DNA from: PVC group bacterium
GTDB lineage: Bacteria > Auribacterota > Erginobacteria > Erginobacterales > Erginobacteraceae
Reading direction: 5' to 3'
Length of the DNA stretch: 64,000 bases
NCBI GenBank assembly: GCA_043804695.1
Contig: JAZDIV010000033.1
Location: 1,907-65,906 of the forward strand
The first letter of the stretch is position 1. Each line of letters begins with the position of its first letter. Made by a program: the position numbers and the translations under genes. This document shows, one piece after another, positions 2 to 5,551 of this stretch. The notes beneath the pieces are model-generated. The model searched no databases. It saw nothing but the letters and a program-made list of their open reading frames with translations, and was not told the origin of the DNA.

Positions 2-790
2 GCCGTGGGCGGCTCCGCCGGCGGTCTCAGGTGGTCCCGCGGTGCGGCCGCCCTCCTGGCGTCCCGGGGATACGCGGCCCTGGCCCTGGCCTATTTCGGG
101 CTAAAAGGGCTCCCCCCGACCCTGAAGGAGATCCCCCTGGAATATTTTCAGAAAGCGATCGGGTGGCTGGAGAAACGTCCCGAGACCCGGAGCGGCACCC
201 TGCGCGTGATCGGGGTCTCGAAAGGCGGGGAACTGGCGCTCCTGCTCGGTTCCGTCTTCCCGGCCGTCACCGGGGTGGCCGCCTTCTCCGGGAGCGGACT
301 CGCCTTCAACTGCCTCGACCGGGCGGTAGTCTCATCGTGGACATTCCGGGGAAAGCCGATCCCGTTTGTTCCCTTCGCCGACGCCTCCTTCTTCTCCCGG
401 GCCGATTTCAGCCGTCCCCTCCGTTTCACCGGGTTCTATCTCGACAACATGAAAAACCCGGATGATCTCCGGGCCGCCGGGATCCCGGTGGAAAAAATCA
501 ACGGCCCCGTCTTCCTCGTCAGCGGGGGCGACGACGGGGTCTGGCCCGCCGGACAGCTGGCCGGGGCCGCCGTCCGGCGCCTGAAAGAGCACCATCATCC
601 CGTGACCCATCTCCACTATCCGGACGCCGGACATCTGACGAGATATCCCTTCCTGCCCACGACCTCTCTCTCCATGCGGATGGAAGAGATGGGTCTCACG
701 CTCGCCTTCGGGGGAAGCCCCGCGGCCAACCACCACGCCGCGGCCGACGCCTGGCCGCGGCTGCTGGATTTCCTGGAGCAGGGCCGGTGA
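2..790 (+). CDS. alpha/beta hydrolase, BAAT / acyl-CoA thioesterase C-terminal-like (5' end cut by window edge)
   Basis: The reading frame is open to the window edge. It has a nucleophile-elbow motif (VIGVSKGGELALLLGS) and a C-terminal DAGH, typical of the BAAT_C / dienelactone-hydrolase fold. Confidence 0.7.
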   Translation, partial: AVGGSAGGLRWSRGAAALLASRGYAALALAYFGLKGLPPTLKEIPLEYFQKAIGWLEKRPETRSGTLRVIGVSKGGELALLLGSVFPAVTGVAAFSGSGLAFNCLDRAVVSSWTFRGKPIPFVPFADASFFSRADFSRPLRFTGFYLDNMKNPDDLRAAGIPVEKINGPVFLVSGGDDGVWPAGQLAGAAVRRLKEHHHPVTHLHYPDAGHLTRYPFLPTTSLSMRMEEMGLTLAFGGSPAANHHAAADAWPRLLDFLEQGR

Positions 791-1509
791 AAGGCAAGGC
801 CCGCCTGAGATCGCTGCCGGCAGTGGCGACCGCCCTTTTTCTGGCCACCGCCGCGGTGCGGGCGGGGCAGGGAATGGCGAACAACACCGCCGTAACGGCA
901 ACCCCGTCGCCGGTGAGCGGAGAAGAGATTTCCGTACTCGATCATTTCCCCCTTCTCAACGGCCTGAGCTGGAAGTACCGTTCCAACCTGGGCGATGTCT
1001 CCTCCCGGGTCATCATCGACGGCGACCGGGTCACGATCATCTCCGAGTCGTCCCCCCTCGACATCAGGCAGACTCTCCAGCTCACGCCGGACGGACTCTT
1101 CCTGACCGAAGCCGAGAGCGACACCTTCCTCCTCTCCACCCGGAGAACCTATCACCCGTTCCTCCTCCGTTTCCCACGCCGGGTCGCGGTCGGCAAAAGC
1201 TGGGAATGGAAGGGGCGGGAAGTGGTGGACGGGGATATCATCGAGAGCCGGGTCGAGGGGGTCATTGACGGGTGGGAGACGGTCGCCGTCCCCGCCGGCG
1301 AGTTCAGATGCCTGAAAGTCACCGTCAGGACCGTCTCCGACGACGGGACGACCAGCTCTTCCACCCAGTGGCTCGCCTCCGGCATCGGGATCGTCCGGGC
1401 CGACATCAAGATCGATGCCGGCGGCCTCTCCGGTTTCATCATCTCCCTGCTCGGGTTCGATTCCTACCATCTGGAACTGGAAGAGATGAACCGGCCGGAG
1501 AAAAAATAA
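787..1509 (+). CDS. secreted hypothetical protein
   Basis: GTG start overlaps the upstream stop (GTGA). N-terminal signal-like segment LPAVATALFLATAAVRA. No family recognised. Confidence 0.55.
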   Translation: MKGKARLRSLPAVATALFLATAAVRAGQGMANNTAVTATPSPVSGEEISVLDHFPLLNGLSWKYRSNLGDVSSRVIIDGDRVTIISESSPLDIRQTLQLTPDGLFLTEAESDTFLLSTRRTYHPFLLRFPRRVAVGKSWEWKGREVVDGDIIESRVEGVIDGWETVAVPAGEFRCLKVTVRTVSDDGTTSSSTQWLASGIGIVRADIKIDAGGLSGFIISLLGFDSYHLELEEMNRPEKK

Positions 1510-2094: not shown

Positions 2095-2673
2095 ATGGAA
2101 CTGAAAGGTTCACGGACAGCAAAAAATCTGATGACCGCCTTTACCGGCGAGTCTCAGGCCCGCAACCGTTATACCTATTTTGCCGGCAACGCGAGAAAAG
2201 AAGGGTTGGTCCAGATCTCCAATATCTTCGAGGAGACCGCCGGCCAGGAGAAAGAGCATGCGAACAGGCTCTTCAAGTTCATGACCGGCGGCGAAGAGGG
2301 GATTTTAGCGGAAGCAACTTTCCCCTTCGGGGTGATCGGGTCGACCGAGGAGAATTTGAAAGAGGCTGCCGGCGGCGAGCACTACGAGTGGACGGAGATG
2401 TACCCGGGTTTCGCCAAAATCGCCCGGGAGGAAGGCTTTGAGTCGATCGCGAAGGCGATGGAGTCGATCGCGGTGGCCGAGAAACAGCACGAAAAGCGCT
2501 ACCTCGGGCTGGCCGAGAACATCAAGCGGGGCCGGGTCTTCACGCGCGAGAAACCGGTGGTCTGGCGCTGCCTGAACTGCGGGTATCTCCACCAAGGTAC
2601 CGAGGCCCCGGAAATCTGCCCCGCCTGCGCTCATCCCCGGGCGTATTTCGAACTGCTGGGTGAAAACTGGTAA
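2095..2673 (+). CDS. rbr: rubrerythrin
   Basis: AAGGAG RBS. N-terminal diiron four-helix motifs (ESQARNRY, EKEH) plus a C-terminal rubredoxin-like CxxC...CxxC (WRCLNCGY...CPACAHP). Confidence 0.95.
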   Translation: MELKGSRTAKNLMTAFTGESQARNRYTYFAGNARKEGLVQISNIFEETAGQEKEHANRLFKFMTGGEEGILAEATFPFGVIGSTEENLKEAAGGEHYEWTEMYPGFAKIAREEGFESIAKAMESIAVAEKQHEKRYLGLAENIKRGRVFTREKPVVWRCLNCGYLHQGTEAPEICPACAHPRAYFELLGENW

Positions 2674-2978: not shown

Positions 2979-3359
2979 ATGACAAAGAGATTTGAGATCT
3001 ATAAATGCGAGGTCTGCGGGAACATCGTGGAAGTCCTCCACGCCGGCGCCGGGGCACTCGTCTGCTGCGGACAGGAAATGACCCTGATGGAGGAGAAGAC
3101 CGCCGACAAGACCATTGAGAAACACGTCCCGGTGATCGAAGAGGTGCAAGACGGTACGGTCGTCAAGGTCGGGTCCGTCCCCCACCCGATGGCGGATGCC
3201 CATTATATCGAGTGGATCCAGATGATCTCTCCCGACGGCGTTCACGCTCCCCGGCATTTCCTGAAGCCGGGCGAGCCGCCGGAGACAAAGTTCAAGATGA
3301 AGCCGGCCGGAGCCACCGCCCGCGAGTTCTGCAACGTCCACGGTCTCTGGAAGAGCTGA
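2979..3359 (+). CDS. dfx: desulfoferrodoxin (2Fe superoxide reductase)
   Basis: AAGGAGG RBS. N-terminal desulforedoxin motif YKCEVCGNIVEV...LVCCG, followed by an SOR domain (KHVPVIE...). Confidence 0.95.
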   Translation: MTKRFEIYKCEVCGNIVEVLHAGAGALVCCGQEMTLMEEKTADKTIEKHVPVIEEVQDGTVVKVGSVPHPMADAHYIEWIQMISPDGVHAPRHFLKPGEPPETKFKMKPAGATAREFCNVHGLWKS

Positions 3360-3511: not shown

Positions 3512-4024
3512 ATGCTGAGTAAAAAGATGCAGGAAGCGTTAAACACGCAGATCAATAAGGAGCTTTACTCGGCGTACCTTTATCTCTCGATGGCCGCCTA
3601 CTGCGAGACGGTCAACCTGAAGGGCTTCGCCAACTGGATGATGGTCCAGGTCCAGGAAGAGCTGAGCCACGCCCAAAAATTTTTTCACGTCGTCAACGAG
3701 AGGGGGGGCAGGGTCGTCCTCCAGCCGATCGACGGCCCCCCTGCCAAATGGGACTCCCCCCTGGCCGTCTTCAAAAATGTTTACGAGCACGAGCAGCTGG
3801 TCACCGGCCTGATCAACGGCCTGGTCAGGCTCGCGCGGGAAGAGAATGATTGCGCGACCGAAGCGGCGCTCCAGTGGTTTGTCACCGAACAGGTCGAGGA
3901 GGAAGCCTCTGCCGGCGAGGTGGTCGAGCAGCTGAAACTGGCCGGGGACCGGGGCGGAGAATTCTTCATGCTCGATCGCGAACTGGGAACACGCGTCTTC
4001 ACGCCGCCGGCGGCGTCGGGGTAG
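3512..4024 (+). CDS. ftn: bacterial non-heme ferritin
   Basis: GAGGAGG RBS. Ferritin-like diiron residues in LNTQINKELYSAYLYLSMA...QEELSHA...EHEQ. Confidence 0.9.
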   Translation: MLSKKMQEALNTQINKELYSAYLYLSMAAYCETVNLKGFANWMMVQVQEELSHAQKFFHVVNERGGRVVLQPIDGPPAKWDSPLAVFKNVYEHEQLVTGLINGLVRLAREENDCATEAALQWFVTEQVEEEASAGEVVEQLKLAGDRGGEFFMLDRELGTRVFTPPAASG

Positions 4025-4328: not shown

Positions 4329-4446
4329 ATCGCATTATTTTCGTTTTACAAAATTTTTGGGCCGTAGTAGAGTGTCCCCGGTAATCTGGTTTGACTCCAC
4401 GGTCCACGCGATCACGATCAACCAGAAGCCATGAGGAGGAAAGCTG

Positions 4447-4764
4447 ATGGCCATCTTCCGTGAAGGAGCATATCTGGTCTGTATGCGCTGCGGGCGCGAG
4501 ATTGTAATCACCAACGCCGGATACTCGATGACCGATATCTGGTGCTGTATACCGACCAACCCCATGGTCACAAAGGCCACGGCGGCACAGTCAACCAGGG
4601 AAGCAGAAAAGGAGGCTCCCATGAAAGCGGCGAAAAAGAAAGCCCCGGCCAGAAAGGCCGCCAAGAAAAAAGTGGTGAAGACGGCAGCCAAGAAAAAAGT
4701 CATTAAGAAAAAAGCCCCGGCCAAAAAGGCAGCCAAGAAAAAAGTCGCTAGGAAGAAGAAATAG
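4447..4764 (+). CDS. desulforedoxin-like CxxC...CC domain fused to a Lys/Ala-rich histone-H1-like tail
   Basis: GAGGAGG RBS. The N-terminus YLVCMRCGREIVITNAG...WCC parallels the Dfx N-terminus YKCEVCGNIVEVLHAG...VCC in this window. The C-terminal ~50 aa are AKKKA/AAKKK repeats. An intrinsic terminator follows. Confidence 0.7.
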   Translation: MAIFREGAYLVCMRCGREIVITNAGYSMTDIWCCIPTNPMVTKATAAQSTREAEKEAPMKAAKKKAPARKAAKKKVVKTAAKKKVIKKKAPAKKAAKKKVARKKK

Positions 4765-4784
4765 CGATTCCTGTTTGCAAGGAA

Positions 4785-4818
4785 GGAGCCCCGGCCTGCC
4801 CGGGGCTCCTTTTCTTTT
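4785..4818 (+). terminator. rho-independent terminator
   Basis: ggagccccgg-cctgc-ccggggctcc stem-loop followed by ttttctttt. Confidence 0.75.
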
Positions 4819-4864: not shown

Positions 4865-5551
4865 ATGAGCCTGAAGATCAACACCGGCCATAAACCATTC
4901 ATCATGGTCTTTGATTTCGACGGGACCATCACCGAGGAGGATATCTTCGACGCCGTCTTCGCCCGCTTCGCCGACCCGAAATGCTGGGAGGCACACCGGG
5001 CCTACCATGACCGGGAGATCAGCATGAAGGAGGCCTACCTGGCGATGGCTGAATACTTCCGGGGCAGCGCGGAAGAGGTCCGCGATTTTGTCCGGGAGTT
5101 CGCCCGCCTCCGCTCCGGCTTCAAGGAGCTGCAGGCGGCGCTCTTTGCCCGCGGGCTCCGGACGATGATCGTCTCCAACGGATTCGACATCTACCTCCAC
5201 TACCTCCTCGACTTCTGGGGACTCGACTTCGCCCCGGAAGATATTTTCTGCCACCACGCTGAGATTCAAGACGGCCGTTTCATCCCTTCCTTCCGCGAGC
5301 ACCGTGACCTCCGGCACGACCACTGCCTGATCGGGAAGGCGGAGATCATCCGGGAGCTTCAGGAGAAGGGCTCGTTTGTCGCCTTTGCCGGAAACGGCTG
5401 GAGCGACACGCCCGCCTCCCACGTCGCCGACCTGGTCTTTGCCCGGGATCGACTGGCCCGGTACTGCCGGGAGCACCGCCTCCCCTCCGTCCCCTTCTCG
5501 ACCTTTCATGAGGTGGGAACCTATCTCTTCGGGGGCAAAAGAAATGCGTGA
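4865..5551 (+). CDS. HAD-IB family phosphatase (MtnX / phosphoserine-phosphatase-like)
   Basis: Motif I FDFDGTIT. SNGF and GNGWSD motifs. Confidence 0.8.
   Translation: MSLKINTGHKPFIMVFDFDGTITEEDIFDAVFARFADPKCWEAHRAYHDREISMKEAYLAMAEYFRGSAEEVRDFVREFARLRSGFKELQAALFARGLRTMIVSNGFDIYLHYLLDFWGLDFAPEDIFCHHAEIQDGRFIPSFREHRDLRHDHCLIGKAEIIRELQEKGSFVAFAGNGWSDTPASHVADLVFARDRLARYCREHRLPSVPFSTFHEVGTYLFGGKRNA

Follow-up and report, generated by a model that had tools for sequence, protein, structure and literature searches.

Gene X, on the forward strand of a 64,000-nucleotide stretch of PVC group bacterium contig JAZDIV010000033.1 (hereafter the window), encodes a 105-residue protein, X, in which a small four-cysteine head resembling desulforedoxin (Dx) is followed by a long Lys/Ala-rich polycationic tail. 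We read X as a dimeric metal-(Cys)4 protein that would sit on DNA or some other polyanion and serve alongside oxidative-stress and iron genes, and give this reading a probability of roughly 0.55. The evidence that carries it is the relationship of the head to Dx and to the N-terminal domain of desulfoferrodoxin (Dfx), the recurrence of head and basic tail in a family of uncultured anaerobes, and the physical linkage of gene X to dfx and ferritin genes in the phylum of the window.

The desulforedoxin-like head

The ligand arrangement of Dx (PF06397), a CxxC pair followed at a distance by two adjacent cysteines, is present in X as C12-x2-C15-x17-C33C34. The Dfx encoded upstream in the window has C-x2-C-x15-CC, so that the loop of X is two residues longer, as had been noted in an earlier interpretation of this DNA from its letters alone (the sequence-only reading). 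In an alignment of 49 family heads all four cysteines are invariant (49/49), with G16 and G25 nearly so; together with orthologue conservation, this invariance indicates that the head pattern exceeds chance.

By best profile, profile-profile and fold matches, the closest family to the head is that of Desulfovibrio gigas Dx (1DXG/1CFW) and the centre-I N-domain of Dfx, also termed 2Fe-superoxide reductase (SOR) (1DFX, 2JI2), represented by PF06397 and TIGR00319. X shares with this family the CxxCG...CC pattern with adjacent cysteines, a length of about 36 residues and probably the two short beta-hairpins. PF06397 was matched by 31 of the 49 heads at E<=0.01 (best E 7.7e-8), and the head of the relative P0003 passes its cut-off with 25.6 bits; TIGR00319 was matched by 8/49, and any zinc-ribbon family (for example PF09723, Zn_ribbon_8; PF00301 was also considered) by at most 3/49. 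When the 49-sequence profile was run against the PDB with hmmsearch, desulforedoxin 1cfw/1dxg came top (E 3.2e-4), with 1dfx at E 4e-4 and the desulfoferrodoxins 2ji2 and 1vzg also matched. These Dx/Dfx alignments span the whole domain, whereas the rubredoxin and zinc-ribbon matches cover the first CxxCG knuckle only. Profile-profile alignment with hhalign against canonical Dx/Dfx, represented by 17 N-domains from genomes of the same phylum, gave a probability of 98.0 and E 2.6e-13 over 34 columns, with one 3-column gap directly before CC; this comparison corresponds to the HHpred check proposed in the sequence-only reading. In a phylum-wide genome search the X family scored 55-63 bits and canonical Dx/Dfx at most 35, a clean separation.

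Pfam and NCBIfam scans of the whole protein X returned low-complexity noise only, phmmer of the X head against the PDB likewise gave noise and no meaningful match, and a 6-sequence profile found nothing significant in the PDB, 1dfx (E 0.23) being nevertheless its sole full-length alignment. An AF2 model built with 41 sequences has pLDDT 82-92 for residues 1-50, a helix at residues 43-56 and a tail of low-confidence coil. The best three PDB matches of this model in Foldseek were 1dxg (probability 0.96, TMt 0.77), 1dfx and 2ji2, with root-mean-square deviations of 1.2-2.0 Å but E values of 0.28-0.86, as expected with 40 residues. The head modelled alone fared worse (pLDDT 74.5) and gave an ambiguous Foldseek list. 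We consider the structural evidence for a Dx fold consistent but weak.

These comparisons place the head in the desulforedoxin superfamily, as a diverged domain with 2-3 residues inserted ahead of CC, and not among the generic zinc ribbons, in line with what the sequence-only reading had proposed; the second ligand pair is CC, so the two CxxC pairs of a zinc ribbon or rubredoxin are not found. X differs from Dx in the loop before CC (x17/18 versus x15), in what follows CC (IPTNPM in the X clade versus G-x-P-M in Dx) and in the long polycationic tail, which only X carries. X has no ferritin-family match in Pfam and hence no sign of a Dps/ferritin four-helix bundle, so that any likeness to Dps would be functional only.

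The tail, the gene and its family

Residues 1-58 of X are near neutral in charge. The tail that follows is Lys/Ala-rich, repetitive, highly basic and, as modelled by AF2, disordered coil; its DNA holds a 27-nt imperfect tandem repeat. The sequence-only reading had described it as H1-like, which is borne out for its Lys/Ala composition but not for membership of HC2 (PF07382), for which X reaches 12.4 bits (E 0.17), the cut-off being 40. The resemblance to H1/Hc-type tails is one of composition only.

The features of the gene and its surroundings are collected in Table 1. The open reading frame (ORF) and the quoted protein sequence of the sequence-only reading were confirmed, and so were its strong ribosome-binding site and its terminator. 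The orthologue in a genome of the same genus (G001) retains ribosome-binding site, head, tail and terminator, and in both this orthologue and that of a same-order genome (G009) the tail stays in frame and basic despite length changes. Ribosome-binding site, terminator and conserved orthologue argue that gene X is real. The antisense ORF that overlaps it has the F/L/A-rich appearance typical of a shadow of Lys/Ala codons.

Table 1. Gene X, its predicted signals and domains, and adjoining genes, in window coordinates
Feature	Position	Strand	Basis
DUF3108-like gene, upstream of rbr	787-1509		
Rubrerythrin (rbr)	2095-2673	+	PF02915, 115 bits
Desulfoferrodoxin (dfx)	2979-3359	+	PF06397, 73 bits; PF01880, 68 bits
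Ferritin (ftn)	3512-4024	+	Pfam, 151 bits
NifU-like (nifU), 73 residues	4107-4328	+	Pfam, 103 bits
ORF antisense to X, 173 aa	4335-4856		No family matched
Promoter-like TTTACA-17-TAGAGT, inside the 118-nt nifU-X spacer	4345-4373	+	Consensus scan; candidate only
Ribosome-binding site AGGAGG, 7 nt 5' of ATG	4434-4439	+	Invariant in all three aligned spacers; present in G009 too
Coding sequence, 105-aa protein X	4447-4764	+	ORF reading; G001 orthologue 81% identical over residues 1-59
Desulforedoxin-like head, residues 8-42 (about)	4468-4572	+	Invariant Cys, hhalign, PDB profile matches, AF2/Foldseek
Cys12 codon	4480-4482	+	Sequence
Cys15 codon	4489-4491	+	Sequence
Cys33 codon	4543-4545	+	Sequence
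Cys34 codon	4546-4548	+	Sequence
Linker, residues 43-58, predicted helix 43-56 (TKATAAQSTREAEK)	4573-4620	+	AF2; motif PTNPMVTK kept in close clade
Lys/Ala polycationic tail, residues 59-105 (47 aa)	4621-4761	+	Net charge +24.5, pI (isoelectric point) 12; AF2 coil, pLDDT about 56-64
Stop codon of X	4762-4764	+	
Intrinsic-terminator-like hairpin, 14-pair stem, 9 G-C, then T-run	4781-4813	+	Equivalent hairpin 3' of G001 orthologue
HAD-family hydrolase, 3' of X	4865-5551	+	Pfam; HAD also after X in G001, P0021 and P0027 contigs

In the spacer alignment the promoter-like block is kept in the orthologous spacer of G001 as TTGTACA...TAAAGT. X may be its own transcription unit, because there is a promoter-like site in the spacer and the block is kept in the sister species. 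The placement of X at the end of an oxidative-stress operon, as earlier proposed, is correct as to gene order, Pfam having identified all four genes of rbr-dfx-ftn-nifU ahead of X, but gene X is probably transcribed from a promoter of its own and not simply the last operon gene. Read-through into X from rbr-dfx-ftn-nifU is possible.

The sequence-only reading had proposed a search for the same fusion in other genomes, and homologues with both parts were found in several lineages. A word-indexed search gave five metagenomic proteins in which a Lys/Ala tail follows a CxxCG...CC head; among 1.84 billion representative proteins a profile search gave 66 clusters at E<=1e-3, 16 of them at E<=1e-10; and whole-genome searches gave six further relatives in the phylum of the window, where gene X occurs in 7 of 79 species genomes. 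An alignment search with the close clade reached only two genomes, uncultured bacterium MFD02416 (same genus) and PVC group bacterium B1Sed10_207 (same order), and in the broad family alignment no block was conserved enough to seed a related-locus search. The design of head plus tail recurs in three subfamilies and at least two phyla; one member, of the third subfamily, comes from a Thermodesulfovibrionales metagenome-assembled genome (P0058). All source names found for the family are ‘hypothetical protein’, and literature searches brought up no published account of a basic tail on a Dx-like head, which agrees with the earlier statement that no example had been described. The family appears rare and patchy and, as far as seen, confined to uncultured anaerobes; head plus basic tail is the trait of this unnamed family.

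Among 61 extended-loop members the net charge of the tail is at least +5 in 49 and at least +15 in 28, with a median tail of 49 aa and +13. Several of the exceptions are apparent frame-shifted assemblies or have the basic stretch N-terminal instead. In a single case, the 171-aa metagenomic protein P0018, an HNH endonuclease domain (PF01844, 26.6 bits) stands after the extended-loop head in place of the tail. P0018 is a second, independent pairing of an X-type head with a DNA-directed module.

Other arrangements were also seen. P0019 and P0020 have a different C-terminal domain for which no family was matched, and the small metagenomic proteins P0052, P0059, P0061, P0062 and P0065 have a tandem pair of Dx-like CxxC...CC units without a basic tail. 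In a composition scan of the genome of the window, which is 88% complete, the only other comparable Lys-rich tail was that of ribosomal protein bL21, encoded on the minus strand of contig C114, which has a long Lys-rich C-terminal extension. The minus strand of contig C43 has an ORF with about ten VPK repeats.

The neighbourhood of gene X

Gene X lies beside dfx and ferritin genes, at most 4 kb from an SOR gene, in four of the seven X-bearing genomes, which belong to three genera. By our own estimate, taking 1-3 SOR genes in about 3 Mb, chance would place X near SOR in <1% of cases per genome. Only this physical linkage carries weight, because SOR genes are found in 65 of the 79 genomes and co-occurrence of X and SOR across the phylum is uninformative. 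The link of X to oxygen-defence and iron genes is real in the phylum of the window; in the wider family it is a tendency and no rule. The association with oxidative-stress genes suggested earlier for the window alone holds through dfx/ftn neighbours in G001, G009 and G053.

The order in the window and in G001 is rbr-dfx-ftn-nifU-X-HAD. In G009 it is rbr-dfx-ftn-X, ftn being followed by a spacer of 44 nt and a ribosome-binding site. In G053, which belongs to a different family and has an X of a different subclade, a Fur/PerR-type gene is followed by dfx, a rubrerythrin-like gene, ftn, thioredoxin, ccdA, a tlpA-like gene, a ferritin-like gene, X and a gene for a DUF255 thioredoxin protein; this long oxidative-stress string lies on one strand (contig C5, L025 3808-10146), and its ferritin-like gene can be described as ferritin-like/Dps-like. 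In G042, X is followed by hemerythrin and then a thioredoxin-reductase-like gene, and in G005 a P-type ATPase gene and one 98-aa ORF without family precede X. Contigs of two close relatives have the orders DUF3108-like-NifU-X-HAD (P0027) and X-HAD (P0021). Other members have a ZIP transporter, CooT, a radical-SAM gene or NifU as neighbours.

The rbr-dfx-ftn block looks like a cassette gained or lost beside a conserved nifU-X-HAD core, because the DUF3108-like gene is common to the window and to the P0027 contig (L066), which has DUF3108-like, NifU, X and HAD genes without rbr-dfx-ftn.

Two further loci were recorded. On several metagenomic contigs a conserved 63-aa ORF without family (L031 4667-4858; L062-L064) lies between a class II-type ribonucleotide reductase (RNR) gene and the subfamily-A Dx-tail gene. 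A same-order genome has, at G010:C21:4207-4302 and downstream (L015/L054), a canonical Dx (PF06397, 45 bits) N-terminal to a 1-Cys peroxiredoxin (AhpC-TSA, 116 bits, plus 1-cysPrx_C), which would be a Dx-peroxiredoxin fusion.

What X may do, and the alternatives

Dx forms homodimers in which each chain carries a single, distorted tetrahedral Fe(Cys)4 site that accepts Zn, Cd, Ga and other metals (PDB entries). By analogy, each head of X would bind one metal ion tetrahedrally through its four cysteines, iron as in Dx or possibly zinc, and would dimerise in the manner of Dx to give two tails per particle. The tails would associate with DNA irrespective of its sequence, or with RNA, polyphosphate or some other polyanion. 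Under oxygen or iron stress the nucleoid might thus be equipped with a thiolate centre, either redox-active or metal-buffering, which could protect or compact DNA there or pass electrons to neighbouring detoxifying enzymes. The sequence-only reading had likewise suggested, as possible roles, DNA binding with redox or iron sensing, or a Dps-like protection of DNA.

Partial parallels to this arrangement are known. The closest described architecture is that of the HTH-Dx-SOR class of superoxide reductases (SORGOdb), in which Dx is fused with a DNA-binding domain (PMC3116461). Like X, these proteins combine Dx and a DNA-binding module in one polypeptide and belong to the oxygen-defence genes of anaerobes, but they have a folded N-terminal helix-turn-helix (HTH) and a catalytic SOR domain, whereas X has no SOR domain and its putative DNA-binding part is the disordered tail. 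Mycobacterial MDP1/HupB, in which HU is extended by a Lys/Ala tail, acts as a ferroxidase and shields DNA against Fenton damage (PMC3116847). It shares with X an H1-like (Lys/Ala/Pro) tail and also handles iron, but is a functional analogue only, of the kind that the sequence-only reading sought in Dps: it has an HU fold of ferroxidase-type activity where X has a Cys4 knuckle, and there is no homology. Streptomyces DdbA pairs an H1-like domain with a 4-Cys DksA-like domain (PMC3643593) and, like X, joins a Lys-rich H1-like region to a small four-Cys domain; it is nucleoid-associated, zinc-containing and linked to stress and development. The domain order of DdbA is the reverse of that of X, however, and its finger is of the DksA/TraR type, with two CxxC pairs on a coiled coil, and not a Dx fold. 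Chlamydial Hc1/Hc2 and Pseudomonas AlgP resemble the tail of X in their Lys/Ala-rich repeats, with length varying by repeat number (PMC2848022, PMC9239181), but have no metal-binding head, and the likeness is one of composition only.

Several points weigh against our reading of X. By the Pfam cut-off and by the x15 rule X is not a formal member of the Dx family: the conserved Dx motif is CXXCX15CC (PMC3116461), and all canonical Dx/Dfx of the same phylum have x15, whereas X has x17 and its 61 relatives x17 (27) or x18 (34). The X head alone scores 12.9 bits (E 0.088) against PF06397, under the gathering cut-off of 23 bits. In two genomes of the same family, G005 and G002, the tails are Gly/Ser/Asn-rich and barely basic, and for this reason we take the polycation to be common but not obligatory. 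The genes around X vary within the family: in subfamily A they are RNR, the 63-aa ORF and a TilS-like gene, and in P0058 gene X is flanked by panB and by cytochrome genes. Two HU-type genes are already present in the genome. Metal binding, dimerisation and DNA or polyanion binding of X are inferred from what is established for Dx and for H1-like tails.

Two more specific roles were ruled out: X is not the only nucleoid protein, given the two HU-type genes, and it does not replace a missing rubredoxin, a canonical rubredoxin being encoded in the genome.

Among other explanations, X could be a soluble electron carrier, equivalent to rubredoxin or Dx, for SOR, for rubrerythrin or for Bfd-like release of iron from ferritin, with a tail that merely docks acidic partners. 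The head is homologous to a redox protein; X directly follows a ferritin or ferritin-like gene in G009 and G053 and lies one gene past ftn in the window; the neighbouring products are acidic (pI 4.8 for ftn, 5.1 for NifU, 5.8 for rbr and 6.2 for dfx); and a rubredoxin gene comes after dfx (rbo) in known operons, as in Desulfovibrio vulgaris rbo-rub. We nevertheless regard this role as unlikely: a canonical rubredoxin is available elsewhere in the genome, Dfx and Rbr each have an Fe(Cys)4 domain of their own, a tail of 47 residues and +24 is far beyond the needs of known docking patches, many family members are distant from SOR, rubrerythrin and ferritin genes, and the HNH nuclease that stands in the place of the tail in P0018 points to nucleic acid. 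It seems to us distinctly unlikely that X has a structural Zn(Cys)4 knuckle, no redox role and only an incidental linkage to stress genes, and binds RNA or the ribosome as small basic ribosomal proteins with zinc ribbons do. Ribosomal proteins are common among small basic Cys4 proteins, RNA-binding zinc-ribbon proteins are among the weak PDB matches, bL21 of the same genome is also Lys-rich-tailed and subfamily A adjoins housekeeping genes; however, the zinc-ribbon matches stop at the first knuckle where those to Dx/Dfx run the length of the domain, the second pair of ligands is CC and not CxxC, the patchy occurrence in the phylum is unlike that of a core ribosomal component, and the dfx/ftn linkage recurs in three genera.

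The tail might instead target polyphosphate granules, with the head handling iron there, since AlgP, a Lys/Ala/Pro-rich, H1-like protein, associates with such granules and spaces them (PMC9239181). Gene X does lie in iron- and metal-related neighbourhoods, but no ppk, ppx or granule gene adjoins any member examined, and sequence alone cannot tell polyphosphate binding from DNA binding; we hold this to be very unlikely. Least credible of all, at the level of an outside chance, is that X is no functional fusion, the Lys/Ala region being a spurious extension or low-complexity read-through, or the true gene being antisense. The tail is indeed low-complexity and variable in length, and the antisense ORF overlaps it, but the terminator sits 3' of the tail, the G001 and G009 tails keep frame and charge, the antisense ORF matches nothing and the design is found in three subfamilies of at least two phyla, so that the spurious-extension reading is already contradicted.

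The reading of X as a polyanion-held metal-(Cys)4 dimer could be carried further. The family might be an unrecognised class of chromatin proteins that strict anaerobes switch by redox state or iron: an Fe(Cys)4 dimer would clasp two H1-like tails, and oxidation or iron loss would alter dimerisation and hence DNA bridging or compaction, coupling the state of the nucleoid to oxygen and iron stress beside the PerR-type regulon to which gene X would belong. This further step we consider unlikely as it stands.

To our knowledge Dx, the textbook minimal iron-sulfur protein, has been described in two forms only, the free 36-residue dimer and the electron-transfer domain of enzymes such as superoxide reductase and desulforubrerythrin. 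Joining a loop-extended Dx head to an H1-like polycation, and in one case to an HNH nuclease, would turn the Dx fold to a new purpose and bring a metal-thiolate centre to DNA or some other polyanion. Should the iron centre prove real and redox-active, X would represent a nucleoid-bound oxygen defence, or a metal-dependent chromatin protein, in anaerobes; if the head only binds zinc, several uncultured phyla would still have in this family an unannotated protein associated with the nucleoid or with RNA.

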